Assembly: GCA_964430875.1 (NCBI GenBank) | Contig: CAYSHP010000006.1 | Location: 5,699 to 69,698 of the forward strand | Length of the DNA stretch: 64,000 nt | Reading direction: 5' to 3' | DNA from: an uncultured Halanaerobiales bacterium | GTDB lineage: Bacteria > Bacillota > Halanaerobiia > Halanaerobiales > M55B127 | Shown: positions 6,713-61,770 of the stretch, piece by piece | Layout: each line of letters starts with the position of its first letter | Position numbering within the stretch: the first letter of the stretch is position 1 | The notes under the pieces: generated by a model | Seen by the model: only the letters and a program-made list of their open reading frames with translations | What the model was told of the DNA's origin: nothing | The model's database searches: none | Position numbers and translations under genes: made by a program

Positions 6713-6730
6713 ATTATTATATCTCCTTTT

Positions 6731-6762
6731 ATTCGTTATTCCCGACCACATATAGCGATATC
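6731..6762 (-). promoter_or_regulatory. Candidate ModE-type molybdate-responsive operator
   Basis: Minus strand reads ATCGCTATAT-GTGGTCGGGA-ATAACGAAT, an inverted repeat CGCTAT..ATAACG. It lies between the predicted -10 and the modA SD. It resembles the E. coli modA operator half-sites as I remember them. No modE gene is in the window. Confidence 0.35.
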
Positions 6763-6788
6763 AAAAAAATATGACTAACTTGATAAAC

Positions 6789-6817
6789 ATTATAACATAT
6801 ATAACTCAATTTATCAT
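6789..6817 (-). promoter_or_regulatory. SigA-type promoter of the mod-moa operon
   Basis: Minus strand: ATGATA, 17-nt spacer, TGtTATAAT (extended -10). About 75 nt upstream of modA. Confidence 0.5.
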
Positions 6818-6905
6818 TATATAATTAACACAAAATATCATATATATATTTAATACATTCCTATAATAAATATTATATCTGTATATTTGAATGTATAAAT
6901 AACTA

Positions 6906-6934
6906 TTGACAGGTATTAAAGGGTGTGTTAAAAT
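6906..6934 (+). promoter_or_regulatory. SigA-type promoter of nifS-nifU-mnmA
   Basis: TTGACA, 17-nt spacer, TGtTAAAAT. About 65 nt upstream of the nifS ATG. Confidence 0.55.
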
Positions 6935-7000
6935 TCAACTGTAATTCTGATTATTTTACTCAAGTTTATGTTTTGGATTATTTTAATTGGAGGTCTAAAA

Positions 7001-8170: not shown

Positions 8171-8194
8171 TCTTAAAAAGGAGTTTACATAGAT

Positions 8195-8545
8195 ATGTAT
8201 ACCAAAGAAGTTATGGAACATTTTCAAAATCCTAGAAATGTTGGAGAGTTAGATAATCCAGATCTAATAGGAGAAGCAAGCAATGATTCACACGGTGATA
8301 TTATAAAATTATATATAAATACAAAAGATAATATTATTACTGATATTCGTTTTAAAACATTTGGCTGTGCAGCTGCTGTCGCGACCAGCAGTATGTTTAC
8401 AGTTTTAGCAAAAGGCAAAAAAATTAATGAAGCATTAGAAATAAGTAAACAGGATATAGCAGATGCTTTAGGAGAACTACCGAATAACAAGATGGAATGT
8501 TCCAATCTTGCACCAGATGCTTTTAAAAAAGCAGTTGAAGATTAA
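8195..8545 (+). CDS. nifU: Fe-S cluster assembly scaffold NifU/IscU
   Basis: HFQNPRNVG, conserved cluster-ligand Cys (FGCAAA.., ECSNLA). Confidence 0.9.
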   Translation: MYTKEVMEHFQNPRNVGELDNPDLIGEASNDSHGDIIKLYINTKDNIITDIRFKTFGCAAAVATSSMFTVLAKGKKINEALEISKQDIADALGELPNNKMECSNLAPDAFKKAVED

Positions 8546-46011: not shown

Positions 46012-47196
46012 TTAACTTCTGTTTTCTACTAACATATTTTTATTAAATATTATCTTAGCAAGTCCATACACAGTTGCTAATTCTCCTAATTTACTATATT
46101 TAACTTCAACCTTATCATAGTTTAGAGCTAAAGTTTTCTCATTTATTGTTTTCTTTATTTCTGGATCTAAATACTCTTTTATCTTTAAAATATTTCCCCC
46201 AATAACCATTAAGTCTGGACTTAAACTATTAATTATATTTGCTAATCCAATTCCTATATTCTCCCCTACATTTTTGAAAAGTTTAATTATCTCTTCATTT
46301 TGTTTATTATCTTTGATTTTTTCATAAATTTGATCAATATTTAAAGATTTATCTGCTGTAATTTCAACATATCGGTCATATATATAATTTTCTGATGCTA
46401 GAGTTTCCCAACAACCTTTATTTCCACAATGACAGCTTCTTTGAGATTCACTTTCTATAATGATATGGCCAAATTCACCTGCATTGCCAGAAGCACCTCG
46501 ATAAAGTTTACCATTAAATATTAAGCCACACCCTATACCTTCATTAATTGATACATAAACCATATTAATTTCTTTATCATAATTAAATTCTTTCTCCCCA
46601 ATTCCCGCTGCATTCGCTTCATTTTCAACAAAAATGGGAACTTTAAATTTTTCATTCATATATTCACTTATTTTTTCTTCTTTCCAGCCTAAATTAGGAG
46701 CAAATTCAAGCAAATCTCTATCTTTATTAACAAGACCAGGTACTGCAAAGCCAATACCTAATAGATCATACTCATCTATATTTCTTTTATCCATTATCTT
46801 TTTTATATTATCAACAATTTTTTCTAAAATATCATCTGGAGTGTTTTTCTTCTCAATATAGAATTCAATTTTTTGTTCAACCTTTAATTTTAAGTTAAAC
46901 GAGACAATTCTAACCTTACTTACCTCTATATCTACTCCTATAATGTAACCCTTATTGGGATTGATTGTTAAAAATACTGGTTTTCTCCCACCTGATGAAA
47001 GGCCTTTTTCTTTTTCTATTACAAACCCTTCTTCAATTAAGGTTTTTACATGGTTAGATATTGTAGCAGCACTATATTCTGTTTTTTCTGACAATTCTTT
47101 ACGAGAAATTGGTCCATATTCATTGATCAGTCTCAATATACTAGACTGATTTAAGTTTTTAATAAATTTAGAATTTCCTATTTTAATCTTATCCAT
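46012..47196 (-). CDS. ROK-family transcriptional regulator (XylR-like)
   Basis: N-terminal wHTH (ILRLINEYGPISRKELSEKT.YSAATISNHVKTL) and ROK zinc motif CHCGNKGCWE. Start set at MDKIK. Confidence 0.85.
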   Translation of the reverse strand: MDKIKIGNSKFIKNLNQSSILRLINEYGPISRKELSEKTEYSAATISNHVKTLIEEGFVIEKEKGLSSGGRKPVFLTINPNKGYIIGVDIEVSKVRIVSFNLKLKVEQKIEFYIEKKNTPDDILEKIVDNIKKIMDKRNIDEYDLLGIGFAVPGLVNKDRDLLEFAPNLGWKEEKISEYMNEKFKVPIFVENEANAAGIGEKEFNYDKEINMVYVSINEGIGCGLIFNGKLYRGASGNAGEFGHIIIESESQRSCHCGNKGCWETLASENYIYDRYVEITADKSLNIDQIYEKIKDNKQNEEIIKLFKNVGENIGIGLANIINSLSPDLMVIGGNILKIKEYLDPEIKKTINEKTLALNYDKVEVKYSKLGELATVYGLAKIIFNKNMLVENRS

Positions 47197-47405
47197 AGTT
47201 ATTACCCTTTCAAAACTTAATTTAATACTTAATTTAACACTTAAAATAACTAACATATGTATATTTCTTTTTATTTCATTATTTTCCTGCATAAATTTCA
47301 AATTTTTTTATTTTTTTTAGTTTTTAACATAAAAAAACCCTTATAGTAAATAGATTATTAATATTCAATCTCTCTACCATAAGGGGAGTATGTCATATTT
47401 TATTA

Positions 47406-48344
47406 TTAGCTTTTATATTTTTTTATTTTTTCAAATATTTCTTTAACAGATAAAATTTCATCAACTTTCCATAAACCTTCACCTGTAAAAAATACACCTT
47501 CTTCTAAATCACCTTTTCTACCTTTCAACAAAGCATCTCTAATACAAAATTCTTTAGTACATTTCTTTAAACAGTTGTCACAATTTACCGGTTCAGGGGC
47601 TACACCATTTTTTATTAATTCTGTAAATCTAGTTTTTATTGCATTAGCAGGTAATCCAACCGAACTCATGATTTGAACTATATCCTTCTTTTGAGCTTCT
47701 ACACATAACTTCTTGAAATTATCTGCTATATTAGCTTCTTCACTTGCTAAAAATCTTGTTCCCATCTGCACACCATCAAGCCCTAATTTAAACATATTAT
47801 CTACATCTTCTGGTGTCACAATATCACCGGCTCCAATAACCGGTATACTAATTTTATCTTTTATCCTTTTTATAAGGGGTAAGGCATCTTCATCTGTACC
47901 GAGGTGTCCGCCTGCATCTCCCCCTTCTATAACAATTGCATCTGCACCTAGTTTTTCAGAAATTTTAGCTAATCTAAGTGATGAAACAATTGGTATTATG
48001 GGTATATCATATTTTTTTCCAATCGTAAACATATCTCTTGAAAAACCTGCTCCAGAAATTATTACATCAATACCTGCTTCTACAGAAGCAGTTATTAACT
48101 TTTTGAACTCTTTAGCAGCAAACATTATGTTAACACCTAATATGCCATCTGTCATACTCTTTGCTTTTTTAATTTCGGCTTTTAATTCATCTACCGGTAA
48201 GGCAGTTCCAGCTATAACACCGATACCACCTTCATTAGCTACTGCACTTGCTAGTTTAGCCATAGATATTCTAATGGCCATACCGCCCTGTATAATAGGG
48301 TATTTAGGAACCAAATCTCCTATCTTTAATTTTGGAAATTTCAT
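47406..48344 (-). CDS. Nitronate monooxygenase / FabK-like FMN oxidoreductase
   Basis: PIIQGGMA, GGIGVIAG and GADAIVIEG..AGGH motifs. Confidence 0.8.
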   Translation of the reverse strand: MKFPKLKIGDLVPKYPIIQGGMAIRISMAKLASAVANEGGIGVIAGTALPVDELKAEIKKAKSMTDGILGVNIMFAAKEFKKLITASVEAGIDVIISGAGFSRDMFTIGKKYDIPIIPIVSSLRLAKISEKLGADAIVIEGGDAGGHLGTDEDALPLIKRIKDKISIPVIGAGDIVTPEDVDNMFKLGLDGVQMGTRFLASEEANIADNFKKLCVEAQKKDIVQIMSSVGLPANAIKTRFTELIKNGVAPEPVNCDNCLKKCTKEFCIRDALLKGRKGDLEEGVFFTGEGLWKVDEILSVKEIFEKIKKYKS

Positions 48345-48515: not shown

Positions 48516-49661
48516 TTATACATTTTGAAAATTAATTTGTAACTCTTTTTCATCTATTCCAGTCTCTGAACAAATCGAATCACATACTCTTTTTAATACT
48601 TTAGAAGCATTAGATTTAGTTAATTCTAATAACAACATCAAATATTGATCTTTGTCCCATTTTGTTATTATATCTCCCTTTCTTAATTCAGTCTCTAATG
48701 TTTTCTCAATATAATATATGTTATTATTTATAAAATTTTGATTATCAAATTTTATATATGCCAAAAATATTGACTTATTATTTCTTTCTGCTCTTCTTTT
48801 TTCTAATTTATAAATCATTCTAAAGATATCATTAGAACATATAAATGCTCCCCTAATATTATCTCTTTCATTTAATTTATCTTGTATTATATTTAGATAA
48901 TTCTTATCAAAATTTTTATTATATAACTCTTCTAACTTTGGCATATTACTCAAATCTAAATTTTTATTAAATAATTCTTTTGCATATTTATAATGAGATC
49001 TAGCATGTCCAATTTTACCAAGCTCTAATAGAGAAGACATATAAATGGTGTGTATTTCTTCTTCTAATGGTTCAATATTAAAACTTTTTTCACAGACCTC
49101 TATTATTTTTTCATGCCGGTCATATTCTTTTAATAGTTTAATATATTCTATTACATTTTCAATATAATACCAGTGATAATTATTTCTACTGGGTATAACC
49201 CAATCATAGTACGGTATCTCGGGCAAATAATCTCCATTATACATATTAAAGGCTTGTTCATAATATTCAAACGCTTCTATTGGTTTTTCTTTACTGACTA
49301 AATTTGCTTTTTTACATAAGTTGATAAACTCTTCAATATCTAACCAATATTCTGATTCTTTATTAAAAAAACATCTTCCCTGACAGTTTATAATGTATTG
49401 GCAATCTTTTTCTTTTGAATTTAAATTTTTCCTTAACCTATACACAAGATTTGTTACTGTATGTGTAGGGTTTTTTATATTCTGGTCAGGCCAAAGATTA
49501 TTCATAATAATTTCAGGATGTATATTTTTCCCTCTTTCTGTTATTAAGTATTTAAATAATAGCCATGGTTTATCATTTGATCTATTATGCGGAGATAATA
49601 GATTACCATTACATTTAACCTTGAATTCACCTAAAGTATAAATCCTTAAAGGTTCATCCAT
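48516..49661 (-). CDS. Regulator R1: SARP/BTAD-type transcriptional activator with C-terminal degenerate GGDEF-like domain
   Basis: N-terminal OmpR/PhoB-type wHTH (YTLGEFKV..KPWLLFKYL..VTNLVYRLRKNL). BTAD-like helical repeat (WLDIEEF..YNGDYLPE..W...R). C-terminal LRKGDIITKWDKDQYLMLL aligns to RxxD-x5-GGDEF-xxLL. Start set at MDEPL (49661, GGGGTGA SD), matching paralog R2. Confidence 0.7.
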   Translation of the reverse strand: MDEPLRIYTLGEFKVKCNGNLLSPHNRSNDKPWLLFKYLITERGKNIHPEIIMNNLWPDQNIKNPTHTVTNLVYRLRKNLNSKEKDCQYIINCQGRCFFNKESEYWLDIEEFINLCKKANLVSKEKPIEAFEYYEQAFNMYNGDYLPEIPYYDWVIPSRNNYHWYYIENVIEYIKLLKEYDRHEKIIEVCEKSFNIEPLEEEIHTIYMSSLLELGKIGHARSHYKYAKELFNKNLDLSNMPKLEELYNKNFDKNYLNIIQDKLNERDNIRGAFICSNDIFRMIYKLEKRRAERNNKSIFLAYIKFDNQNFINNNIYYIEKTLETELRKGDIITKWDKDQYLMLLLELTKSNASKVLKRVCDSICSETGIDEKELQINFQNV

Positions 49662-49926
49662 AAAATCACCCCTTTCAGTGGTTTTTGGGGTAACTGTATA
49701 TGGTATAGAAATGAGAGTTAATAAATTAATAAAAGCTATAGTAAATACAATGAAAAAACATTGCAAGAAAAATTTATCATTATCTTTACCATAGCTTAAA
49801 TTTAAATATATATATTTTTAATTCTCTTTTATAAGTTAACTTTAATTATATCACGAAATTTTTATTTAATCAATATAAATATACTAAATTTTGTTAATTA
49901 TACATTCGATATAAGATTAACTTGTG

Positions 49927-49942
49927 ATAATCATATGATTAT
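49927..49942. promoter_or_regulatory. 16-bp perfect palindrome ATAATCATATGATTAT, preceded by CTTGTGAT
   Basis: Read directly in the R1/A1 divergent intergenic region. Function unknown. Confidence 0.3.
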
Positions 49943-50025
49943 TTTTACTATTAATATATTAAGAACTTCTATATATACAATCTAATTACTTTTATGGAAA
50001 ATATTTATTAAAAAAATTAATTTAT

Positions 50026-50040
50026 TTGTGATTATCACAA
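50026..50040. promoter_or_regulatory. Palindrome TTGTGAT-T-ATCACAA, candidate operator about 180 bp upstream of gene A1
   Basis: 15-bp palindrome. The 9-mer TTTGTGATT recurs at the equivalent distance upstream of gene B1 (54555). Confidence 0.35.
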
Positions 50041-50206
50041 GACATAGAAATGATACCTAAGTGCTATTATTAAAACAAGCAGGGAATTTATAAAAATATA
50101 AAAAAAGGAGGGGGTTGAAAAATAAGTTTTATGCCGGTGATTATTGGGCGGACCGAATTAAGTAGTTTGGTATCTTAAAATAAAAAAACATAAGGAGTGT
50201 TAAATA

Positions 50207-50839
50207 ATGAAAAAATTAGGTATTGGTATATTTGTTTTGATGTTTATTGTATTGGTAGCTATGCCAGTTTTAGCTCTTAATGAGTTAGTTGATATTGATG
50301 ATTCTACTTTATGCTATCCTGATTTCTGGACATGGGTAGACGACCGTGATGATAATAGTGTTGACAAAGACTTATTTGATGATAAAGATATGGTTGATTT
50401 TGATGTAAAATTCTGTGGTTTAGGTCAAGGTTTAGGTGGCCAAAGTGTAAATGGTGTAATGTTTATGGAAAAAAATTATGAAAGATCCGATGTAATTAAT
50501 GGTGGTTCATATGCAAATGCTCATGGCATAGTAACCACTCAAATGTCATCTGGTAATTCAAATTTACAATCTGCTGCTATTTATGCAGATGTTAAATACT
50601 TGGGTGATATTGACCTAGTACCAGTAGGACAAAGTGTTAATGGAGTATTATTCCTAGAAAAAGGTTATATGAGATATGATATGATAGGTGGCGGCGCATT
50701 CGCTAATGCTGTTGGTATTATAACAACTCAACTATCCTCAGGTAATGCAAATCTACAACAAGCTATTGTTGATATAGAAGTAAATCCATCTGTTTTCTGT
50801 CATCCAGCTCCAGCTCCAATTTGCCCATGTAGCAAATAG
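50207..50839 (+). CDS. A1: secreted two-repeat N/Q/G-rich protein (candidate fibre subunit)
   Basis: Signal peptide ..AMPVLA|LNE. Acidic Asp-rich linker. Two 52-aa repeats with 63-aa period (GQSVNGV.F.EK.Y.R.D.I.GG.[YF]ANA.GI.TTQ.SSGN.NLQ). Cys-rich tail CHPAPAPICPCSK. AAGGAG SD. Confidence 0.8.
   Translation: MKKLGIGIFVLMFIVLVAMPVLALNELVDIDDSTLCYPDFWTWVDDRDDNSVDKDLFDDKDMVDFDVKFCGLGQGLGGQSVNGVMFMEKNYERSDVINGGSYANAHGIVTTQMSSGNSNLQSAAIYADVKYLGDIDLVPVGQSVNGVLFLEKGYMRYDMIGGGAFANAVGIITTQLSSGNANLQQAIVDIEVNPSVFCHPAPAPICPCSK
50438..50782 (+). repeat. Tandem coding repeat in A1 (2 x about 156 nt, period 189 nt)
   Basis: Residues 78-129 and 141-192 align with more than 60% identity. Confidence 0.85.
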
Positions 50840-50852
50840 TTTGATATAAAAT

Positions 50853-50885
50853 GCAGGGTATTTGATATACCCTGCTCTAGTTTCC
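50853..50885 (+). terminator. Intra-operon hairpin/attenuator after A1
   Basis: GCAGGGTAT-TTGAT-ATACCCTGC located 14 nt after the stop. Weak T tract. The counterpart after B1 has the same GCAGGGT/ACCCTGC core. Confidence 0.55.
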
Positions 50886-50927: not shown

Positions 50928-51626
50928 ATGAAAGTTGATAAAATAATATTTATAAACATCTTAATAATATTATTGGTTTTCAGTATAAGTGGATTTACCT
51001 TTGCTGACAACGTTAGCTTTAGGATTTTTTCCTCCGGTATGAGAATTAATACTACTGTTGAAAGTATCGCTGAATTAAGGTTTAAAAATGTCGTCAAACA
51101 AAAATATGATATAAGCTGTGGATCAGCCGCCTTAGCTACTATATTTCAATTTAATTATAACGATGAGGTAAGTGAACAAGAAATCATCGATATGATTTTG
51201 GGAATTAAAAATATTAGTAGTCTAAAAAATGAATCTGGTTTTAATCTGCTAGATTTAAAAATGGCTGCAGAGTTTTTTGGATACACAGCTCATGGTTTAA
51301 AAGGTAGTCTTGCAGCTATTAGTAAAATTAATTTGCCAATGATTGTTCTCTTAGAAGCACCTCAGGGTCCTCATTTTGTAGTAGTTAGAAAAATCAATGA
51401 AGACTCTGTACAAGTGGCTGACCCTGCTTTGGGTAATCAGTCCATTAAAATTGATAAGTTTGAAAAACAATGGAATAATATATTATTGGCAATTGAAAGC
51501 CGAAATAAAGTCTTAAATGATAATCTTGAAGTTTATGAAATACCTCTTATAACAGGAGGAAAAGATATTATGAGGACTTTAAATGATAGTTGGACAAGAA
51601 TACCTTTTAACCATATAGAATTTTAG
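50928..51626 (+). CDS. A2: periplasmic C39-family cysteine peptidase
   Basis: Signal peptide ..FTFA|DNV. Q58-x5-C64 (KQKYDISCGSAALATIFQ), and H149 (GPHFVVV) with D165 exactly 16 residues later (VADPALG). These are the C39 catalytic set and spacing. AGGAGG SD. Confidence 0.85.
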   Translation: MKVDKIIFINILIILLVFSISGFTFADNVSFRIFSSGMRINTTVESIAELRFKNVVKQKYDISCGSAALATIFQFNYNDEVSEQEIIDMILGIKNISSLKNESGFNLLDLKMAAEFFGYTAHGLKGSLAAISKINLPMIVLLEAPQGPHFVVVRKINEDSVQVADPALGNQSIKIDKFEKQWNNILLAIESRNKVLNDNLEVYEIPLITGGKDIMRTLNDSWTRIPFNHIEF

Positions 51627-51673: not shown

Positions 51674-52051
51674 ATGAAAAACACATTTAAAATCAGTGGT
51701 TTGTTGTTTATGATTCTTATGTTAATACTCTTATCACCTTCTATAACAGCTGCTGATTTCCCCGCAGAATTTGAAAAGGTTTCTGATTCTGAATTGGCTG
51801 CTATAGAAGGAATGGGAAATATATTTGAAATTGTCGAAATTGCAGAAAACGGTTATGAGTTTAGCTATAGTGGAAATAGAGACAATGCTTTCCAAAATGC
51901 CTCAGGTATTATTAGTGTCAGCAATGTTTCTGGTAATGGTAATACAGTTCAAAATATCATAGACCTAAAAGTATGGATTATGAATATTAATGGAAACATA
52001 AATATTGATATTGATGATCTTGGACAATATCTTCAAGAAATGAATTTATAA
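51674..52051 (+). CDS. A3: small secreted one-repeat protein with double-glycine-type leader motif after the signal peptide
   Basis: Signal peptide ..SITA|ADFP. VSDSELAAIEGMG resembles LSxxELxxIxGG. One copy of the NAFxNAxGI..V.N.SGN.N..QN repeat. GGAGGGGG SD. Confidence 0.8.
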   Translation: MKNTFKISGLLFMILMLILLSPSITAADFPAEFEKVSDSELAAIEGMGNIFEIVEIAENGYEFSYSGNRDNAFQNASGIISVSNVSGNGNTVQNIIDLKVWIMNINGNINIDIDDLGQYLQEMNL

Positions 52052-52067: not shown

Positions 52068-52101
52068 ACCCTCCATTTTTAAGGATGGAGGGTCCTTTTT
52101 T
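52068..52101 (+). terminator. Intra-operon terminator/attenuator between A3 and A4
   Basis: ACCCTCCAT-(8 nt)-ATGGAGGGT followed by CCTTTTTTAC. A similar CCTCCAT/ATGGRGG hairpin sits between B3 and B4. Confidence 0.7.
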
Positions 52102-52171: not shown

Positions 52172-53059
52172 ATGAAAAAAATATTAGTCTTTTTATTTAC
52201 TTTGCTTCTTTTTTTAATTTTTATTAATTTTAGTATAGGAGAAATAGTACAGGCCAAAAGTCCCTTTGAAATAGATGTCAGTTTATCTTATTTACATAGT
52301 TCAAATAATAGATTAGCGGTATCAGGTTATAGTGTAATTGAAGTATTAAATGTAGGAAAATTTGAAGTTAGAAAAATAAATAGAGATATACTATCAACAA
52401 ATATAAGATTAAGACACACCACACCTGAAACTAGTGTCGAATTGATAATACCTTATACCTTTAGAAGAGATGAAATTATTAAGTATGCAGATGTGGATTC
52501 TGACACAAATGAACCGACTAGAGAAGTATTAAGCGGGAATGGTTTGGGTGATATACTTTTAAATATACAAACAGATATCAAATATGGTGATGTACATCTG
52601 CAAAATACTCAAGTAAATCTAGGATTGAAAACTTCTACGGGTAAATGGTATGATCCTAAATCAGGTATGTCATTTACATCTGGTCATTATGGATTCAAAT
52701 TGGGTATATCACATATGATACCTATTGATCCCATAGTACTATTTGGAAGTACTAATTATTTTTGGAATATAAAACAATATAATGTAGATCCTGGAGATTC
52801 AATACAATATTCAATGGGGGTAGCCTATGCATTAACACAAAATTTCTCTGTTAATGCCCGCTTTGAGCATACTTTAACAGGAAGTACAGTAAATAATGGA
52901 AGAACAGTTATAGAATCAAGTTCTAATTCTGCAACTTTATATATGGGAGGAAGTTATGTTTCACAAAAAGGTGTTCCCTTTGATGTAATAATAGGTACTG
53001 GTTTAACTGAAGATGCTGCCGATTTCTCTTTTCAACTTAGTAGACCATTTTATTTCTAA
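52172..53059 (+). CDS. A4: small outer-membrane beta-barrel protein (candidate export pore)
   Basis: Signal peptide ..IVQA|KSP. Alternating amphipathic strands throughout. C-terminal beta-signal ..FQLSRPFYF ends in Phe. Size and pattern recall the 'MetA-pathway/transporter' OM barrel family (unverified). Confidence 0.75.
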   Translation: MKKILVFLFTLLLFLIFINFSIGEIVQAKSPFEIDVSLSYLHSSNNRLAVSGYSVIEVLNVGKFEVRKINRDILSTNIRLRHTTPETSVELIIPYTFRRDEIIKYADVDSDTNEPTREVLSGNGLGDILLNIQTDIKYGDVHLQNTQVNLGLKTSTGKWYDPKSGMSFTSGHYGFKLGISHMIPIDPIVLFGSTNYFWNIKQYNVDPGDSIQYSMGVAYALTQNFSVNARFEHTLTGSTVNNGRTVIESSSNSATLYMGGSYVSQKGVPFDVIIGTGLTEDAADFSFQLSRPFYF

Positions 53060-53093: not shown

Positions 53094-53121
53094 AAAAAGC
53101 AGCTTTAAAGCTGCTTTTTTT
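53094..53121. terminator. Bidirectional terminator shared by A4 (+) and regulator R2 (-)
   Basis: 18-nt palindrome AGCAGCTTTAAAGCTGCT flanked by an A-run and a T-run. Same CAGCTTTAAAGCTG core as the hairpin at 48486-48509. Confidence 0.8.
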
Positions 53122-54277
53122 ATATGCTATCAAAATTATATCTAATATCTTCCTTATTTATTTTAAGTTCTTCTTTAATCTCTTCTTTCAATCTTTTTAT
53201 AACTTTATTTACATCTGCTCTAGACATATCCTTAAGTAACATTAAATACTTATCAAAATCCCACCGAGTAATAACATCTCCTTTTCTTAATTCTTTTTCA
53301 ATAATATTTTCTACAATATAATCATTTTGTTTTAAAATATTTTCATTTTCAAATTTTAAATAACTAATAAAAACCGGTTTATCTCTCCTTTCATTCCGTC
53401 TCTCTTCTAATTCGTAAATCATTCTAAATATATCATTTTTACAACTAAAGGCCCCTTTGATATTATTTCTATTTTTTAGTTCTCCTTGAATATCATTAAT
53501 AAAATTATTATTTTTCTTATTATTTTCCGTAAAAATATTATTAAGTTTAGGTGATTTACTTATATCTAAATTTTCACTGAAAAGATTATTGGCATAATTA
53601 TAATGTGATCTAGCATGTGCATGCTCTCCTAACTTAATTAAAGCATCTAAATAATTACTATGAAGTTCTTCTTCATAAGATTCTATATTTAAAGCTTTTT
53701 CAGCTATTGACTCTATTTCTCTATATCTTTCATATTTTTTCAATAAATTAATGAATTCTAGAACTTTTTCAACAAATAACCAGTGGTAATTATTTCGATA
53801 AGGTATAACCCACTCTTGATAAGGTATTTCTGGTAAATAATCTCCTTGATATAAGTTTAAGGCCTCTTTATATAAAGGTATCGCTTGGGCTGGATTATTC
53901 TTTTTTAACTTAGTTGCTTTTTTACTCATTGCAATAAATTCTTCGATATCTAACCAATAGTTTGCATCCTGATTAAAAAAGCAGTTCCCATTAGAGTTGA
54001 TTATATATTGATCACTTTCTTCATTATTAAATAAATTTAGTTGTTTTCTTAATCTGTATACTAAATTTGTAATAGCATGTTTGGGTTTTTTAATATTCTT
54101 TTTAGGCCAAAGATCATTACTAATAACTTCAGAATGTAAGTTTTTTTCTTTTCCAGTAATTAAATATTTGAAAAATAACCACGGTTTTGAATTAAATTTT
54201 TCTTTGGGAGATAATATTTTGCCCTTATATTCAACTTTAAACTTACCTAAGGTATAAATTTCTAATATGTTATCCAT
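53120..54277 (-). CDS. Regulator R2: SARP/BTAD-type activator with degenerate GGDEF-like C-terminus (paralog of R1)
   Basis: YTLGKFKV..KPWLFFKYL..ITNLVYRLRKQL, then WLDIEEF..YQGDYLPE. C-terminal LRKGDVITRWDFDKYLMLL. GGTGGGG SD. Confidence 0.7.
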   Translation of the reverse strand: MDNILEIYTLGKFKVEYKGKILSPKEKFNSKPWLFFKYLITGKEKNLHSEVISNDLWPKKNIKKPKHAITNLVYRLRKQLNLFNNEESDQYIINSNGNCFFNQDANYWLDIEEFIAMSKKATKLKKNNPAQAIPLYKEALNLYQGDYLPEIPYQEWVIPYRNNYHWLFVEKVLEFINLLKKYERYREIESIAEKALNIESYEEELHSNYLDALIKLGEHAHARSHYNYANNLFSENLDISKSPKLNNIFTENNKKNNNFINDIQGELKNRNNIKGAFSCKNDIFRMIYELEERRNERRDKPVFISYLKFENENILKQNDYIVENIIEKELRKGDVITRWDFDKYLMLLKDMSRADVNKVIKRLKEEIKEELKINKEDIRYNFDSI

Positions 54278-54659: not shown

Positions 54660-54722
54660 CAAAAATATTTAATTACTTCCTTTTGGAATTATTGAGTTTT
54701 CAATTCAAAAATATTTAATTAC
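54660..54722 (+). repeat. 17-bp perfect direct repeat CAAAAATATTTAATTAC (x2, 46 bp apart) in the B1 leader
   Basis: Copies at 54660-54676 and 54706-54722. A 12-bp inverted repeat TGAATTGAAAAC / GTTTTCAATTCA (54622-54633 / 54696-54707) brackets the first copy. Confidence 0.5.
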
Positions 54723-54744: not shown

Positions 54745-55257
54745 ATGAGAAAATTGTTAGGTATTGGCACTGCATTGATGGTTCTGATGGTATTAGTCGC
54801 TGTTCCAGCTGTAGCCCAGGAGGCATTTAATAATGAAGAAATGCCCGGCTATTATTATGGGGAAGATGTAATCTTTGATGATGCTGAGACTGAAGAAATT
54901 TATATCGGAGAAGAAATCTATTACAGAGATGATCTTATTACCAATAATGCCTTCCGAGATGCACTAGGTATAACAACCGTTCAACAAGCTGCTGGTAATG
55001 CTAGTGTTTTAGAAAGTAATGTTACTATTGAAGGCTTAGAAGAAGCAGATGAATTTGAATTAAGCGCTCAGGAAGTTGAAGTAGAAGAAGTACTAATTAT
55101 GGAAAGAGACTATACCAGAGTTGATACAATATCTGGTAACGCTTTCCGTAATGCAACTGGTATTACTACTGTTCAACAAGCTGCTGGTAATGCAAATGTC
55201 GTTCAATCTAATGTAGAGGTAAATATTGGAGCAGCCTTTGCAGCTCCCGAACTATAA
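54745..55257 (+). CDS. B1: secreted two-repeat N/Q/G-rich protein (paralogous role to A1)
   Basis: Signal peptide ..VPAVA|QEA. Highly acidic. Two repeats (..D.I..NAFR[DN]A.GITTVQQAAGNA.V..SNV) with 64-aa period. AGGAGGG SD. Confidence 0.8.
   Translation: MRKLLGIGTALMVLMVLVAVPAVAQEAFNNEEMPGYYYGEDVIFDDAETEEIYIGEEIYYRDDLITNNAFRDALGITTVQQAAGNASVLESNVTIEGLEEADEFELSAQEVEVEEVLIMERDYTRVDTISGNAFRNATGITTVQQAAGNANVVQSNVEVNIGAAFAAPEL
54916..55221 (+). repeat. Tandem coding repeat in B1
   Basis: Residues about 58-95 and 117-159. The core NAFR.A.GITTVQQAAGNA is identical in both copies. Confidence 0.85.
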
Positions 55258-55270
55258 CAAGAACAAATAA

Positions 55271-55300
55271 AGCAGGGTGTAATCACCCTGCTTTTCTATT
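55271..55300 (+). terminator. Intra-operon terminator/attenuator after B1
   Basis: AGCAGGGTG-TAAT-CACCCTGCT followed by TTTTCTATTTAT. Confidence 0.7.
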
Positions 55301-55327: not shown

Positions 55328-56023
55328 ATGAAAAACAAAAAACCTTTAATTATTATTATCATTTTATTTTTAATATTCAGTACAGTTGGTTTAGTCAAAG
55401 CAGGAAATGTAAAATTTCAGGTGTTCTCCTCTGGCCCTACAATAACTAGAAATATAAAAAGTAAAACTGAAATTAAATTTCATAAAATAGTTAAACAGAA
55501 ATATGATGTAAGTTGTGGCTCAGCTTCATTAGCAACCATATTTCAATATTACTATAATGATGAAATTTCAGAACAAGAAATAATAAATATAATAAAAAAC
55601 ATTAAAAATATTGACACTTTAAAAAATAGTGCTGGTTTTACTTTATTAGATTTAAAGATGGCTGCTGAGTTTTTAGGTTATAAAGCTTATGGTCTAAAAG
55701 GAGATATTAAAGCCATAAGAAAATTAGATCTACCAATAATTGTGCTTCTTAATTCCCCTAAAGGACCTCACTTTGTAGTTATTAAAGAAGTTAAAACCAA
55801 TTCTGTAAAAATAGCGGATCCAGCTCTTGGAAATTTAAATCTTAGTATTGAAAAATTTAAATCACAATGGAATAAAACATTACTAGCAATAGAAAGTAAA
55901 AATAGTATTGGAAATAATAATTTCAGCAGTTTTGAAAAGCCTAATTTACCACAAGAAAATCATATATTTAATTTAATTGAAAATAATTGGACTAGATTAC
56001 CAAAAGATCATAAAGAATTTTAA
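55328..56023 (+). CDS. B2: periplasmic C39-family cysteine peptidase (paralog of A2)
   Basis: Signal peptide ..LVKA|GNV. Q57-x5-C63 (KQKYDVSCGSASLATIFQ). GPHFVVI with Asp 16 residues after His (IADPALG). Confidence 0.85.
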   Translation: MKNKKPLIIIIILFLIFSTVGLVKAGNVKFQVFSSGPTITRNIKSKTEIKFHKIVKQKYDVSCGSASLATIFQYYYNDEISEQEIINIIKNIKNIDTLKNSAGFTLLDLKMAAEFLGYKAYGLKGDIKAIRKLDLPIIVLLNSPKGPHFVVIKEVKTNSVKIADPALGNLNLSIEKFKSQWNKTLLAIESKNSIGNNNFSSFEKPNLPQENHIFNLIENNWTRLPKDHKEF

Positions 56024-56069
56024 TTTATCTGGTTTTTAAATTGTAAAAATGAAAGGTAGGAGGGAGATC

Positions 56070-56441
56070 ATGCATAAAAAATTAATTGTTAAATTGATTA
56101 TGTCGGTATTAATGGTCTCAATTATTATAACTCCTATTTCAGCTGCCGAAATTCCCGAAGGGTTAAATAGTTTAAATGAAAAGGAATTATCAGGTATTAG
56201 AGGTATGGGGCAAAATTTTAGTATAGAACAAATAAATTCATCAAATGTAAAATTTAGATACAGTAGTAATAAAGATAACGCCTTTAAACATGCCTCAGGA
56301 GTTATGAATATAACAAATGTTTCCGGAAATGAAAATACAATAAATAATGTAGTAGACCTAAAGATTAATATCTATAATATTGAAGAAGTTGAAAATCTTG
56401 AACTATCTGATATTAAAAATATGGTCAATCTTAAAAATTAA
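56070..56441 (+). CDS. B3: small secreted one-repeat protein with double-glycine-type leader motif (paralog of A3)
   Basis: Start set at MHKKL (GGAGGGAG SD). Signal peptide ..PISA|AEIP. LNEKELSGIRGMG motif. Repeat DNAFKHASGVMNITNVSGNENTINN. Confidence 0.78.
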   Translation: MHKKLIVKLIMSVLMVSIIITPISAAEIPEGLNSLNEKELSGIRGMGQNFSIEQINSSNVKFRYSSNKDNAFKHASGVMNITNVSGNENTINNVVDLKINIYNIEEVENLELSDIKNMVNLKN

Positions 56442-56455
56442 TGGTTAATAAAAGA

Positions 56456-56486
56456 ATATCCTCCATTAATATGGGGGATATTTTTA
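56456..56486 (+). terminator. Intra-operon terminator/attenuator between B3 and B4
   Basis: ATATCCTCCAT-TAAT-ATGGGGGATAT (one G.U/mismatch) followed by TTTTTAC. Confidence 0.7.
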
Positions 56487-56521: not shown

Positions 56522-57391
56522 ATGAAAAAGCATATAATAATTTTTTCTTTATTAATAATGTTTTTATTCTCAAGCTTTATTTTGCAAACAAACTTTAGTC
56601 AAGCAAAAAGTCCCTTTGAAATAGAAATAGGTACTTCTTATTCGCATAGTTCTAATAACAGATTAAATGTGAGTGGATATAGTGTAGTTGAAGTGGTAAA
56701 TATAGGAAAGCTGGAAGTTAGAAAAATCAGAAGGGATATTTTGACTTCCAATTTAAAATTAAGATATAAAAATCAAAGATCAAGTTTTGAAATAGTAATA
56801 CCTTATAAAGTACAAAGAAAAAGTGTAATAAAATATGCGGACACTACTGAAAATGGAGAACCCACTGAAAAAATAAAAACTTCTCATGGTTTAGGCGATG
56901 TTATGATCAATTTAAATACAAATATTAAAAGCAAAAATACTAAATTTAATATAGGAGTTAAAACAACTACCGGGCAGGAATATGGTAATGAAACCGATAT
57001 GAATTTTGGTTCTAATTATTATGGTTTAAAATTAGGCATAAGTCATATAAAACAATTAGATCCTGTAGTCTTTTTTGGCAGTGTAAATTACTTTTGGAAT
57101 ATAGAAAAAGATAATTATAATCCAGGTGATACATTACAATATTCTTTAGGCTTAGCATATGCTTTAAGTCAAAACTTATCTTTAAACACTAGAATCGAAC
57201 AGTCTATAACTTCTAGTTCATATCAAAATAATGACAAAATAATTGGTACCAGTATAAATGCATCCTCCTTATATTTAGGAACTAATTATACAAATCAAAG
57301 TGGCTCTTCCTTTAATTTTCTTATTGGTCTTGGTCTATCTGAAGATTCTGTTGATTATTCTCTACAAATAAATAAGCCATATTATTTTTAA
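56522..57391 (+). CDS. B4: small outer-membrane beta-barrel protein (paralog of A4)
   Basis: Signal peptide ..FSQA|KSP. Same N-terminal KSPFEI.. block as A4. C-terminus ..LQINKPYYF. Confidence 0.75.
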   Translation: MKKHIIIFSLLIMFLFSSFILQTNFSQAKSPFEIEIGTSYSHSSNNRLNVSGYSVVEVVNIGKLEVRKIRRDILTSNLKLRYKNQRSSFEIVIPYKVQRKSVIKYADTTENGEPTEKIKTSHGLGDVMINLNTNIKSKNTKFNIGVKTTTGQEYGNETDMNFGSNYYGLKLGISHIKQLDPVVFFGSVNYFWNIEKDNYNPGDTLQYSLGLAYALSQNLSLNTRIEQSITSSSYQNNDKIIGTSINASSLYLGTNYTNQSGSSFNFLIGLGLSEDSVDYSLQINKPYYF

Positions 57392-57410: not shown

Positions 57411-59195
57411 TCAATTTCTGTTTTTCATTTCATACATGAAGTAATCAGCTTCTTTAAAGACCTCTTCAAGTTCTGTTTTGTGATCCTTTTTTACTCCGAA
57501 ACCAGTAGATATACTAATCGGAAACTCATATTTTTCATCTAATTTATTAACATTGGTTTGTATCCTTTGTTCTATTTTTTTAACTTCATCTTCGTCTGTT
57601 TGAGGGAGTAAAATTGCAAATTCATCTCCTCCCACCCGAGCAAGTATATCTTCTTGTCTTACTGCATTGTCTATCTCACTAGCAACTAGATTAATATATT
57701 TATCGCCTCTGGCATGACCAAATTTATCATTTACTTTTTTCAAACCATCAATATCAGACATAATAATACTAATTGGTAGTAACCTTGAATTATCTAACCT
57801 TTCCATTTCACTTTCGAAATATCTTCTATTATATAATCCAGTCATTTGATCATGAAAAGATAAGTATTTAATCTCTTCTTCTTCTTTTTTTCTTTGGGTA
57901 ATATCATTATAAATTGCATATAAGCCAATTTGACCTTCTTTTAAACTAATTGGGAAAGCATGTATTGTAACATCTACTGTTTTACCTTCTTTTGTTTTGC
58001 GAACCGATTCTTTTTCAATGTCCTGATTATTTAAGACTTTTTTAGTATAATTTTGTCCTTCTTCTTTTTTAGTTTCAGGCACTATTAGATCATCTATGTT
58101 TTTATCTTTTGCTTCTGATTGTGAATAACCAAATAAATTCTCAAAACTTTTATTTATCTTAAGGATTTGATTTTCATTATCTAAAAGAGCAATTGCCTCA
58201 GTTGACTCATCGAATAATTGTTGAAAGAATGCTTTTTGTCTTCTTAACTTTCTTTCAGTTTCTTTTCTTTCAGTTATGTCATTATATATGGCATATATCC
58301 CTATTTGGCCTTTACCTAATTTTATGGGAAAAGAATGCATGGAAACAAAAATTCTTTTACCCTCTTTTGTCTTTCTAATTGTTTCTAACTTCACTTCTTT
58401 GCCTGCAATATTTTTTTTGGTATTATTAATGCCTTCTTCTATTTTTTCTTCGGGAGTTATCAGATCATCTATGTTCTTCCCTTTAATCTCTTTTGCCTGA
58501 TAACCAAATACTTTTTCAAAACTTTTATTTACTTTAATAATCTTGCTTTTATTATCTAAGAGAGCAATTGCTTCGGTTGACTCATTAAACAATTGTTGGA
58601 AATATGCTTGATGTTCTTTTAATCTTTTTTCAACATCTTTTCTATAAAAGGCTTCTGTGATATTCAAAAGATAATTTAATACTTTTTTATCTTCTTTACT
58701 AAAATTAACATCTCTATTTTCATCAATATCTAAAGTTATGCCACCTACTGCTTGCTCTTTAAAGTATAAATCAAAAGTAATGGAATCTTTAATTGGTTTT
58801 GATGCCTCTTCTAATTTTGAATAAGTATTATTATCGGTTGAGTCTTTTGTAATATCTATTACTTCACTAATAATAGAGACTTGATTTTTGCGGTCAGACA
58901 GCTGAAATACACTCTCATCTATTGCAATCTGTTTAAGCACAGCAAGATTATGTCCAACAGTATCTAAAAATTTTACTTTACCATCTACATATTTATAAAC
59001 ACTACCATAATCAGCCTTTTTGATTAAATTCATAGCTGTCTTTAAGAGTTTTGACCAAAATATTTTTTCATCTTCAATACTTATTTCATTGAGTTTATTA
59101 GAAAAATTGATAATTCTTTCAAAACTCTTGTTTAATTCATTAACTCTCTTATTTAGCTGTTTAATTTTCTCTTTTAATTCAGCAATTTCATGCAT
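57411..59195 (-). CDS. Diguanylate cyclase: coiled-coil/GAF-like N-terminus, tandem PAS, GGDEF with I-site
   Basis: Two roughly 113-aa PAS units (QQLF[ND]ESTEAIALLDN..). LTGLYNRRYF, DIDGLKKVNDKFGH, and RQED-x5-GGDEF (active A-site plus RxxD I-site). Confidence 0.9.
   Translation of the reverse strand: MHEIAELKEKIKQLNKRVNELNKSFERIINFSNKLNEISIEDEKIFWSKLLKTAMNLIKKADYGSVYKYVDGKVKFLDTVGHNLAVLKQIAIDESVFQLSDRKNQVSIISEVIDITKDSTDNNTYSKLEEASKPIKDSITFDLYFKEQAVGGITLDIDENRDVNFSKEDKKVLNYLLNITEAFYRKDVEKRLKEHQAYFQQLFNESTEAIALLDNKSKIIKVNKSFEKVFGYQAKEIKGKNIDDLITPEEKIEEGINNTKKNIAGKEVKLETIRKTKEGKRIFVSMHSFPIKLGKGQIGIYAIYNDITERKETERKLRRQKAFFQQLFDESTEAIALLDNENQILKINKSFENLFGYSQSEAKDKNIDDLIVPETKKEEGQNYTKKVLNNQDIEKESVRKTKEGKTVDVTIHAFPISLKEGQIGLYAIYNDITQRKKEEEEIKYLSFHDQMTGLYNRRYFESEMERLDNSRLLPISIIMSDIDGLKKVNDKFGHARGDKYINLVASEIDNAVRQEDILARVGGDEFAILLPQTDEDEVKKIEQRIQTNVNKLDEKYEFPISISTGFGVKKDHKTELEEVFKEADYFMYEMKNRN
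57888..58601 (-). repeat. Tandem PAS-domain duplication inside the cyclase gene (period 125 aa)
   Basis: Residues 199-311 and 324-436 are about 60% identical. Confidence 0.8.
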
Positions 59196-59301: not shown

Positions 59302-59886
59302 TTATTTAAGTATAGATCTAAATAGTTTAAGGTTGTTTTCCAATTTATTTACCTTCATTAAATCTTTTAAAGCATTAATATAGTCTTCTTTTTTAATACC
59401 TGATAAGATATCTTGTTTTAAAATCTCTGCTAATAATACAACATTTTGCATTCTTGTGTCATCAAGGTCTTCTTTATAGACTTCAATTACCTCTGCGTTT
59501 AACTTTTCCGCTGCTTTATTAATATCCACTTTTTTTACTTCATTAGTATTTTCTAATCTTACATCTAAAGTTTGCCAGGAAGTATTATAATATATTAAAG
59601 TTCCAGCCTCTTTTAAATAACTTTGTAAACCTCTTAAAGCTTCTGTTCTTTCTAAAGCTATAACAATATCAGCAGTACCTTTTTGAATTAAAGGTGAATA
59701 TATGCCTTTTCCTACCCTAAGGTGAGATTGAACAGTCCCGCCTCTTTGGGCTAAACCATGTGTATCTACACCTCTAACATTTAATTTAGCATAATCTGCT
59801 GCTCTTATTAGAACTTCACTCAATAGGCCAATTCCTTGACCACCTACTCCAATCATGTAAATATTTATTCTATCCTTATTTTCCAT
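59302..59886 (-). CDS. iorB: Indolepyruvate:ferredoxin oxidoreductase subunit beta
   Basis: IGVGGQGIGL N-terminus, about 190 aa, directly downstream of iorA. Confidence 0.85.
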   Translation of the reverse strand: MENKDRINIYMIGVGGQGIGLLSEVLIRAADYAKLNVRGVDTHGLAQRGGTVQSHLRVGKGIYSPLIQKGTADIVIALERTEALRGLQSYLKEAGTLIYYNTSWQTLDVRLENTNEVKKVDINKAAEKLNAEVIEVYKEDLDDTRMQNVVLLAEILKQDILSGIKKEDYINALKDLMKVNKLENNLKLFRSILK

Positions 59887-59889
59887 TAT

Positions 59890-61770
59890 TTACTTCCCTC
59901 CTTTTTGTTTTATACCAATAGCATCTGTTGGACAGGTTTGTAAACAAGATCCATCTCCAATACAAAGATCCTCATTTACAGTAACTCTACCCTCTTCATC
60001 TATACTAAAGGAAGGACAACCAAATTCTTGTACACACTCATGGATTTGCCTGCATATTTCTTGGTCAATATTAGCCTTATTATCCTTATATGAACCGTCC
60101 CTTCTGGCTACCCTGGTAAACTTTAACATACAAGGATGAGTAGCAATCACAACACTAAAGCCTTTTTCATTTACCGCTTTTTTCATGATTTCAGTTAATT
60201 TAGATTGAGCATAAGTATCTATTCGATATACATTTTCTACCCCAAAACCTTCCAACATTTCTTTAATTGAAACTGGTTTTACCTCTTCATTGAAGTTTTC
60301 ACCGGTTCCAGGATGGTTTTGATGGCCCGTCATAGCTGTAGTTCCATTTTCCATTATTACTAATGTTAAATTATGATCATTAAATACAGCATTTACAATA
60401 CCCGGTAATCCTGCATGGAACATAGTAGAATCACCTAAAAATGATACTACTTTTCTATCTTCATTAAATAATGATAGACCTGTACCAGTTGAAGTGGAAT
60501 GTCCCATAGAAAGTAAGACTTCTCCCATCTCATAAGGCGGTAAAAATCCGAGGGTATGACACCCTATATCAGCTACAGTTATATCTTCATCAGATAAAGC
60601 TTTTTTAATTGCATAAAAAGCGGATCTATGTCCACAGCCCGGACATAATTGAGCCGGACGATTTTCTACATCTTCTGAAAATCTGATTAAATCCTTTTCT
60701 TTAAAAGTGTCTGGCCAGGTCTTAGCCATCACTTCTTGTACTTTATCAGGGGTATATTCATTAATCCAATCTTCTATATCAACTTTTCCAATTATATTAC
60801 TTTTAACTCCTTCTTCAAAGGCAATAACCTTAATTTCTTTTTCTAATACATTATCTAATTCCTCTAATACTTTTACTTCTTTATGCTCTCTTAAAAATTC
60901 AGTTATTACTTTTCTAGGTAAAGGATATATTATACCGAGTTTCAATATATCTGCTTTATCATCCATATCTTCCATTACATCACGTAATGATAGATATGGT
61001 ACTCCCATTGTAATAATACCTCTCTTTTTATTATTATTATCTATTATTTCGTTTAGATTAGATTGGTCAGCATAATCTTTAAATTCTTCTATCCTTTTTA
61101 AGGCTCTCCTTTTCATCGGAAAAACTTTAGAAGTTATCGGAACATAATTTTCATTATTACTAGAAAATCTAGGCGTTTTATCAAAATCCTTTTGTGTATA
61201 ATCACTAAATTTAACTTTTTGTTTTGCGTGACAGACATGTGTACTTAATCTTAATATGACCGGCATTTCTCTTTCTTGGGAAAGAGCCGCTGCTTCTTTA
61301 TAATATTCATAAACCTCTTGTGGATTAGATGGTTCAAAAATTGGCATATAGGAAAGATGGCCATAATGTCTGTTATCCTGTTCATTTTGTGATGAATTAG
61401 CTCCTGGGTCATCACCAATAACCACTACCATTCCTCCCTTTAATTTCATCAAAGGAAGCTGAACAAAGCTATCTGCAGCCACATTTAATCCTACACTTTT
61501 AAAAAATACAGTAGAAAAATGTCCATTTACAGCCGCCCCAAAAGCAATCTCAGTAGCTACCTTTTCATTTGTTGAAAATTCAAAGTAAAATGGACGCTTT
61601 TCTTTAGGTATACTTCTGATTGCCTCAGCCGTTTCTGGCATTGGTGAGCCGGGATAAGAAGTAACAACTCTAGTACCTGATTCAACCATAGCTCTAACAA
61701 GGGCAGTATTACCAATCACAATTTCTGAAAATGCATCTCCTTTTAATAATATATCTCCCATCGTTTTCAT
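59890..61770 (-). CDS. iorA: Indolepyruvate:ferredoxin oxidoreductase subunit alpha
   Basis: TPP-binding GDSTMFHAG, CPGCGH, and C-terminal ferredoxin-type Cys clusters (..CIGDGSCLQTCP). Confidence 0.88.
   Translation of the reverse strand: MKTMGDILLKGDAFSEIVIGNTALVRAMVESGTRVVTSYPGSPMPETAEAIRSIPKEKRPFYFEFSTNEKVATEIAFGAAVNGHFSTVFFKSVGLNVAADSFVQLPLMKLKGGMVVVIGDDPGANSSQNEQDNRHYGHLSYMPIFEPSNPQEVYEYYKEAAALSQEREMPVILRLSTHVCHAKQKVKFSDYTQKDFDKTPRFSSNNENYVPITSKVFPMKRRALKRIEEFKDYADQSNLNEIIDNNNKKRGIITMGVPYLSLRDVMEDMDDKADILKLGIIYPLPRKVITEFLREHKEVKVLEELDNVLEKEIKVIAFEEGVKSNIIGKVDIEDWINEYTPDKVQEVMAKTWPDTFKEKDLIRFSEDVENRPAQLCPGCGHRSAFYAIKKALSDEDITVADIGCHTLGFLPPYEMGEVLLSMGHSTSTGTGLSLFNEDRKVVSFLGDSTMFHAGLPGIVNAVFNDHNLTLVIMENGTTAMTGHQNHPGTGENFNEEVKPVSIKEMLEGFGVENVYRIDTYAQSKLTEIMKKAVNEKGFSVVIATHPCMLKFTRVARRDGSYKDNKANIDQEICRQIHECVQEFGCPSFSIDEEGRVTVNEDLCIGDGSCLQTCPTDAIGIKQKGGK

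Follow-up and report, generated by a model that had tools for sequence, protein, structure and literature searches.

Fap is a model functional amyloid, known as a biofilm and virulence factor and as a scaffold for biomaterials. The literature treats it as essentially confined to Proteobacteria, with each subunit built from three repeats (PMC3792158, PMC12822426) and with an evolutionarily 'fixed' or stable fapABCDEF or fapBCDEF layout (PMC3792158, PMC6173800, PMC12822426). We analysed a window of 64,000 nucleotides from an uncultured Halanaerobiales bacterium (contig CAYSHP010000006.1; the window is the whole stretch, and all positions refer to it). Our analysis showed two paralogous four-gene cassettes, A1 to A4 and B1 to B4, arranged in tandem on the + strand at 50.2-57.4 kb, with a divergently transcribed regulator gene of its own upstream of each. 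They most probably represent two tandem, minimal Fap-type operons in a Firmicute with an outer membrane, each accompanied by a divergent BTAD regulator. Since A1 and B1 are of FapBC type and A2/B2, A3/B3 and A4/B4 correspond to FapD, FapE and FapF, respectively, each cassette reads subunit-fapD-fapE-fapF.

The catalytic cysteine of FapD and the coiled coil and plug of FapF are required for secretion in Pseudomonas, and FapE, a minor fibre-associated component, is essential for it as well (PMC5557850). The first ~70 residues of FapE were undetected in vivo (PMC5557850). The substrate of FapD has been given as undetermined, and the Fap proteins are said to have no canonical C39 sites (PMC5557850, PMC6173800); of FapE and FapF, a 2025 review says no more than that FapD 'is thought to' process them. 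Three repeats in FapB and FapC are 'almost universal' (PMC12822426), and FapB proteins with two occur in Aeromonas and Acidithiobacillus (PMC3792158). By cryo-electron microscopy, each cross-beta layer of the FapC fibril consists of one repeat of ~52 residues (PMC12392863).

The two loci have the same order of subunit, D, E and F genes as Pseudomonas Fap, with homologous subunit repeats, FapD, FapE and FapF, and all components are Sec-exported in both. FapA is absent, as in the commonest proteobacterial variant (PMC3792158). However, Fap has FapB and FapC with three repeats each, whereas each locus here has a single subunit gene with two repeats, and the first conserved asparagine of the repeat is Q, S or T. 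The FapE-like proteins are ~125 amino acids (aa) long, about half of FapE (~245-300 aa), and keep only the leader and one repeat, and the FapF-type proteins lack coiled coil, linker and plug. Two tandem copies of the operon are present, each with its own BTAD regulator that ends in a degenerate GGDEF-like domain, and the organism is a salt-loving diderm Firmicute rather than a proteobacterium.

Subunits and their shared repeat

All homologues of A1 and B1 carry the precomputed Pfam annotation PF27129 'FapBC'. The family name is taken solely from these precomputed annotations; the Pfam model set scanned here holds no FapBC model, and with this set no match was found for A1, B1, A3 or B3. The NCBIfam FapB model matched 27 of the 29 members of the A1/B1 family weakly, all under the curated cut-off, with an E value of 1.1e-5 for B1. 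Profile alignment by hhalign between the A1/B1 family and FapB-like proteins gave a probability of 98.8% (E 1.3e-16, 110 columns), the two A1/B1 repeats being aligned with the second and third repeats of the latter. Exactly two repeats were present in all 19 A1/B1 homologues obtained by homology search, not the three of Fap.

The original prediction had reported six copies of one motif of ~25 residues, two in A1 (its span of 50438-50782 covers these two), two in B1, one in A3 and one in B3. All six were found where it had placed them, but the actual unit is longer, at ~50 residues, with the consensus xExxxxxEKxYxRxDxIxGNAFxxAxGITTVQxSSGNANxLQSNVxVxxx. Three of its positions do not vary (G, G and N, spaced as G-x8-GN), and Y-x-R-x-D-x-I stands ahead of the NAF core. 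The pairwise identity of the six copies is 15-57%. We built a hidden Markov model (HMM) from 21 A1/B1-type repeats, excluding A3 and B3, and ran it on the 107 open reading frames (ORFs) of at least 60 aa in the window. It recovered A3 (E 7.5e-9) and B3 (E 2e-5), and no ORF among the 107 was matched beyond these and the A1/B1-type proteins. This indicates that the sharing of the motif by four proteins is not due to chance.

A wide search with a repeat HMM had been proposed as a check. The repeat profile gave 945 matches at E <= 1e-3 against 1.84 billion representative proteins, and ~120 of the best 150 of these cover the full repeat core. Many of the matches are three-repeat proteins of ~200 residues. 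When 19 of them were aligned and scanned, all 19 scored with NCBIfam FapB (best E 1.6e-36) and 18 also with FapC. Other matches are much longer: P0022 (1500 aa), P0024 (3063 aa), P0029 (1653 aa) and ~30 further proteins contain 10-39 Fap-type repeat copies each. About 27 other top matches cover only model positions 16-38. These may be false positives of the BspA-type leucine-rich-repeat kind that Dueholm et al. met earlier (PMC3792158).

The minimal Fap repeat pattern is X15-G-X4-N-X3-G-X6-N-X7 (PMC3792158). The core of the present repeat keeps the G-x8-G spacing, but A1 and B1 have Q in place of the first N, A3 and B3 have S or T there, and the last N of the pattern is A in the A1 repeats. 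The repeat is the FapB/C imperfect repeat and not, as originally predicted, a curlin-like one. A curli-type system with CsgA/CsgB-like subunits is extremely improbable, its sole support being a superficial likeness of the Q/N/G-rich motif, with hydrophobic residues alternating on its flanks. Curli share with the two loci secreted, N/Q/G-rich imperfect repeats, a major subunit with a minor partner, and unfolded export across the outer membrane. However, no repeat matched Pfam Curlin_rpt (PF07012) at E <= 1, and the CsgA/curli expression S/N-X5-Q-X-G-X2-N-X-A-X3-Q is absent from all six copies, so there is no sequence relationship. The curli repeat has 19-23 residues, about half the length found here. 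The neighbouring genes encode FapD and FapF homologues, and no CsgG, CsgE or CsgF homologue is present in the locus; curli use another type of channel and have no C39 peptidase. Curli are therefore excluded by sequence and gene context together.

The signal peptides of the locus products were judged by inspection of the translations. A signal-peptide-like segment is present at the N-terminus of A1, B1, A3 and B3, which agrees with the earlier claim that the four repeat proteins are secreted, and all components of the loci bear Sec-type signals. Mature A1 has a net charge of -16 and mature B1 of -26, both with a pI of ~4.05. The linkers of both had been called extremely acidic. The high acidity holds for both proteins, but in A1 it lies in the N-terminal arm (16 D/E in 54 residues) and not in the inter-repeat linker (2 in 13). 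Such acidity would fit extracellular proteins of halophiles, and it may delay aggregation before export.

A1 contains five cysteines, including those of the C-terminal CHPAPAPICPC. This cysteine-rich tail, also noticed before, is conserved in A1 orthologues, and A1-type proteins have two further conserved cysteines near the N-terminus; B1 is free of cysteine. The A-type subunits (A1; P0002-P0005, P0019 and P0023) have cysteines at both ends, in N-terminal LCxPDFW and xxCGxG and in C-terminal FCHPAPAPICxxC, and the B-type subunits have none. One relative terminates in HHHHGGGCK. A possible role of the A-type cysteines is head-to-tail disulfide stapling or metal binding.

Taken with a repeat-poor partner and a dedicated export operon, A1 and B1 look like secreted fibre subunits of functional-amyloid type. 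The general class named in the original prediction, functional-amyloid-type subunits with a minor partner, is thus supported.

Peptidase, barrel and the mini-FapE leader

A2 and B2 matched Pfam Peptidase_C39 above threshold (E 2.3e-24 and 4.4e-26). Their best NCBIfam model is FapD (7.2e-38 and 2.3e-34), followed by FilB (2.3e-27 and 9e-30). The catalytic residues Q58, C64, H149 and D165 of A2 are intact and align with the Gln, Cys, His and Asp of the PCAT1 peptidase domain. Both proteins are, like FapD, C39 peptidases with a catalytic cysteine and, by inspection, a Sec signal.

A4 and B4 matched the FapF structures 5o65, 5o67 and 5o68 in the PDB with E values of ~5e-15 over their whole mature length; for B4 and 5o67 the value was 4.9e-15, with B4 aa 29-289 on chain positions 33-334. 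NCBIfam FapF matched A4 at 4.7e-15, at model positions 122-420 only, and B4 at 1.8e-20, and FilC scored below it (1e-5 and 5e-8). These results identify A4 and B4 as barrels of the 12-stranded FapF type. N-terminal alignment placed the start of the mature proteins 1-3 residues ahead of the first barrel strand. The periplasmic trimeric coiled coil, the linker and the plug helix or motif, all present in canonical metagenome FapF homologues, are absent from both. In one metagenome locus (L077), FapF lacks the coiled coil but has a segment resembling the plug, which shows that intermediate 'mini' Fap systems exist outside loci of the Bacillota type. A barrel without coiled coil is also found in the COG4313/Phenol_MetA_deg channels (e.g., Pput2725), and A4 passes the Pfam Phenol_MetA_deg threshold (4.2e-6). 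However, the PDB matches of A4 and B4 are to FapF, with none to a COG4313 structure at E <= 1, and COG4313 operons have not been reported to contain C39 peptidases (PMC6173800).

Both export proteins bear on another explanation, in which an Acinetobacter Fil-type surface fibre or pilus that is not amyloid, or else a soluble adhesin with a beta-solenoid fold, uses a FapD/FapF-like export pair. The matches to FilB and FilC speak for it, FapD-FapF pairs co-occur outside complete Fap operons (PMC6173800), and the weak fold matches of the subunits go to beta-solenoids in general. The Fil locus likewise combines a secreted C39 peptidase and a FapF-related outer-membrane protein. We regard this explanation as unlikely, because the Fap models outscore the Fil models for all four of these proteins and the subunits are FapBC-family proteins carrying the FapB/C repeat itself. 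In addition, a stable monomeric solenoid made from just two repeats is unlikely.

A3 and B3 belong to a small family that has no Pfam assignment. Their genes occupy the position of fapE, between those for the peptidase and the barrel. A3 matches NCBIfam FapE at model positions 196-231, and eight of ten family members match this model weakly, always in its C-terminal N/Q-rich region (positions 152-240). For comparison we used 80 fapB-containing metagenome loci, most of them with the canonical fapB(C)DEF layout, and extracted the ORF between fapD and fapF from 32 of them. Twenty of the 21 that were aligned match NCBIfam FapE (best E 1.5e-100). By hhalign, the A3/B3 family matches the FapE family with a probability of 96.3% (E 1.5e-9) over the signal peptide, the post-signal motif and the first FapE repeat. 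The earlier comparison of two-repeat and one-repeat proteins with the major and minor partners CsgA/CsgB and FapC/FapB therefore named the right system in Fap, but A3 and B3 are short FapE proteins and not FapB-type nucleators. The longest ORF of B3 starts at 56049 (130 aa), and in some assemblies with this sequence the public gene call begins at 56070 (123 aa, MHKKL...).

The C39 substrates known as double-glycine peptides have the leader consensus LSxxELxxIxGG. All ten A3/B3-family proteins have [FL]xx[VLI]xxxELxx[IV]xG[M/A/Q]G directly behind the Sec signal, with the E replaced by G in one of them. If the cut is assumed after G-[M/A/Q], hydrophobic residues stand at -4, -7, -12 and -15, Glu at -8 (nine of ten) and Gly at -2. 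At the same post-signal position, the 32 FapE candidates have a conserved [QE][LV][ST]DxELxxxRG[K/R], and hhalign aligns the A3/B3 leader with this SDxELxxxRG[KR] motif. In two short FapE candidates (173-176 aa) it ends in a true RGG. The motif can be extended to [QE][LV][ST]DxELxxxRG[K/R][F/Y]V, in which L, R and G do not vary among the 21 aligned candidates, and it was seen in metagenome loci L008-L087 (e.g., L083 8420-9154, L046 4039-4845, L077 8513-9043 and L087 8458-8979). The A3/B3 leader thus resembles the pattern of C39 substrates, except at position -1, and sits at a conserved FapE motif, so FapE is likely the substrate of FapD, with the motif as a concrete candidate cleavage site. 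No paper describing a double-glycine leader in FapE was found in our literature search. A C39 site was also looked for in A1 and B1 and rejected, as the GLGG of A1 lacks the helix pattern of a leader and no such motif occurs in B1.

The leader raises the question of a bacteriocin or signalling-peptide export module, in which A3/B3 would be the leader-bearing precursor, processed by the C39 peptidase and set free via the barrel, and A1/B1 accessory or immunity proteins. The leader pattern resembles that of class II bacteriocins, lantibiotics and competence peptides, and the C39 fold and intact catalytic residues match those of their PCAT/AMS ABC exporters. One family member scored 12.9 bits with TIGR01847 bacteriocin_sig (cut-off 15.7), and another matched the mersacidin-type and lacticin-481-type lantibiotic models at E 0.004 and 0.024 (range of the lantibiotic-leader matches, 0.004-0.1), all sub-threshold. 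However, the leader here sits behind a Sec signal. The peptidase is itself Sec-exported, as a free periplasmic protein not fused to an ABC exporter, and an outer-membrane barrel takes the place of ABC transporter export. Position -1 is G, A or S in double-glycine leaders, but M, A or Q here and K, R or G in canonical FapE. Such a module is very unlikely, because the core of the leader protein is homologous to FapE, including an amyloid-like repeat common to A1 and B1, and the cassette has no ABC transporter; moreover, A1 and B1 are FapBC-family proteins.

Distribution, regulators and flanking sequences

A scan of one genome per GTDB species with two peptide patterns found relatives only in six loci of uncultured Halanaerobiales metagenome-assembled genomes (MAGs) and in one Limnochordia MAG. 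As the scan relies on two patterns, divergent members may be missed. B1 has an identical counterpart in a Halanaerobiales MAG. Halanaerobiales and Limnochordia are both counted among the diderm Firmicutes in the literature. The cassette with its regulator is kept in those related Halanaerobiales loci whose length suffices to show both, and in the Limnochordia MAG. The tandem duplication was also found in a second MAG (L002 and L005). In the Halanaerobiales MAG Soudan_4 (L007), two different subunit genes, at 6569-7258 (-) and 8001-8501 (+), flank one D-E-F set, an arrangement unlike the tandem duplication in the window; one of these subunits has 229 aa. The G+C content of the loci (27-31%) is like that of the rest of the window and does not indicate recent acquisition. 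Our literature search found no paper tying Fap to Halanaerobiales or Limnochordia and none on PF27129 describing this system, and neither Halanaerobiales nor Bacillota is mentioned in the review supplements searched. A December 2025 review states, without detail, that curli and/or Fap operons were found 'even' in Bacillota.

The coordinates of the genes, repeats, leaders and hairpins are given in the table.

Table. Features of the two Fap-type loci in the window (nt, nucleotide positions in the window; aa, residues of the protein)
Feature	nt	Strand	aa	Description
Regulator of locus A	48516-49766	-		Winged helix (Trans_reg_C) + BTAD/SARP + degenerate GGDEF-like C-terminal domain
A1	50207-50839	+		Sec-signal-bearing two-repeat FapB/C-type fibre subunit (putative)
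A1 repeat 1	50441-50608	+	79-134	Repeat HMM domain aa 81-130
A1 repeat 2	50630-50797	+	142-197	Repeat HMM domain aa 144-193
Hairpin directly after A1	50853-50875	+		Terminator-like
A2	50928-51626	+		Secreted C39 cysteine peptidase, FapD-like
A3	51674-52051	+		Mini-FapE: Sec signal, double-glycine-type leader, single Fap-type repeat
A3 leader-like segment ADFPAEFEKVSDSELAAIEGM	51752-51814	+	27-47	Predicted C39 cleavage after G-M
A3 single repeat	51821-51988	+	50-105	Repeat HMM
Hairpin after A3	52068-52093	+		Terminator-like
A4	52172-53059	+		FapF-type outer-membrane beta-barrel
Regulator of locus B	53120-54277	-		Paralogue of the locus A regulator
B1	54745-55257	+		Two-repeat FapB/C-type subunit
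B1 repeat 1	54883-55050	+	47-102	Repeat HMM
B1 repeat 2	55075-55242	+	111-166	Repeat HMM
Hairpin after B1	55269-55294	+		Terminator-like
B2	55328-56023	+		FapD-like C39 peptidase
B3	56049-56441	+		Mini-FapE
B3 leader EIPEGLNSLNEKELSGIRGM	56148-56207	+		Motif of the A3/B3 family
B3 single repeat	56214-56381	+	56-111	Repeat HMM
Hairpin after B3	56452-56485	+		Terminator-like
B4	56522-57391	+		FapF-type barrel

The regulator of locus A matched the Pfam models BTAD (3e-14), Trans_reg_C (4.5e-8) and GGDEF (0.011), and its true start is probably MDEPLRIYTLG, near nt 49661. The regulator of locus B matched BTAD (1.9e-15) and GGDEF (4.8e-4), and phmmer aligned it with the first regulator at 4.9e-139. 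This architecture is kept beside the cassette in other loci, including that of Limnochordia. In the C-terminal GGDEF-like domain of ~100 aa, the motif reads W-D-K-D-Q-Y or W-D-F-D-K-Y. A motif so degenerate suggests that the domain is presumably inactive, and it could be a nucleotide sensor. A PAS-PAS-GGDEF diguanylate cyclase of 594 aa (57411-59195, - strand) lies directly downstream of locus B, convergent with B4, and the same neighbour was seen in other contigs carrying B1. With the degenerate GGDEF tails and the adjoining cyclase, control of the fibres by cyclic di-GMP is possible.

Seven terminator-like sites were observed where 1.9 were expected, and four of the seven follow A1, A3, B1 and B3. 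The hairpin after A1 could be an attenuator that sets subunit excess. Promoter-like hexamers showed no excess (59 against 55 in shuffled sequence), and we therefore claim no promoter. A 23-nt element containing TTGTGATnATCA occurs twice upstream of A1 (49916-49938 and 50020-50042), and its second copy forms the palindrome TTGTGATTATCACAA. B1 is preceded by a perfect direct repeat of 17 nt, CAAAAATATTTAATTAC (54660-54676 and 54706-54722), whose copies are 46 nt apart and lie immediately ahead of the ribosome-binding site. These are candidate regulator sites in a very AT-rich region, where they may also occur by chance. Judged from translations, the flanks (46012-48344 and 59302-61770) hold ordinary housekeeping-like genes, namely a ROK-family regulator, a nitronate-monooxygenase-like flavoprotein and subunits of indolepyruvate:ferredoxin oxidoreductase. 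No mobile-element genes were found next to the loci in the flanking translations.

Assignment to Fap and proposed assembly

Several results weigh against an assignment to Fap. The subunits have two repeats instead of three and come from one gene instead of two, and none of the six repeat copies fits the strict published Fap pattern, their first conserved Asn being replaced by Gln, Ser or Thr. All NCBIfam Fap scores are far under the curated cut-offs, e.g., 25 bits against 190 for FapB. In AlphaFold2 models both repeats show a strand-strand-loop-long-strand pattern, but the models are weak: the mean predicted local distance difference test score (pLDDT) for B1 was 47 with 19 sequences and 65 with 29, and the predicted template modelling score (pTM) was 0.3. 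In a Foldseek search against the PDB, FapC (9u4u) ranked first, followed by beta-solenoids, without significance (E 2.5, TM 0.16). When A1, B1 and a profile of 23 repeats were searched against PDB sequences, neither FapC nor CsgA came up, and the only matches were insignificant ones to beta-helix lyases. A4 and B4 have no coiled coil and plug, which secretion in Pseudomonas needs. The A3/B3 leader departs from the double-glycine type at position -1, and leader-model scans gave matches for two family members, none at threshold. Finally, amyloid formation by A1 and B1 is a prediction from sequence homology.

Homology with Fap and with C39 substrates suggests the following route. All four products of a locus would enter the periplasm by their Sec-type signals, which were read from the sequence by inspection. 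There the C39 peptidase (A2/B2) would recognise the bacteriocin-like leader of A3/B3 and cut after G-[M/A/Q]. The processed mini-FapE and the unfolded, acidic A1/B1 would then leave through the bare FapF-type barrel A4/B4. At the cell surface each ~50-residue repeat would form one cross-beta layer, as in the FapC fibril, and the two-layer subunits would stack into a fibre. The single repeat of mini-FapE may act as a cell-proximal template or as an anchor or processed initiator. Stoichiometry and timing could be set by the hairpins after the subunit genes and by the dedicated regulators.

A wider proposal can be made tentatively, and we hold it at slightly less than even. The loci may encode the smallest natural Fap-type amyloid machine, found in diderm Bacillota (Halanaerobiales and Limnochordia). 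FapD would recognise and cut FapE-type proteins at the post-Sec leader, which reads ELxx[ILMV]xG-x in the mini-FapE proteins and ELxxxRG[K/R/G] among the 32 FapE candidates, and removal of the leader would license secretion. The coiled coil and plug of FapF would then be later proteobacterial additions outside the core mechanism.

The Fap system itself is known; a minimal Fap variant in an unexpected phylum is new. Conserved and duplicated in halophilic, anaerobic diderm Firmicutes, this minimal Fap reveals what the system can do without, namely FapA, a nucleator encoded by its own gene, a third repeat, the greater part of FapE, and the coiled coil and plug of FapF. The leader-like motif, aligned with the conserved FapE motif, offers a candidate substrate and a precise candidate site for FapD, in Pseudomonas as well. 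As very acidic two-repeat proteins of a high-salt organism, the subunits are possible compact building blocks for engineered amyloid materials.

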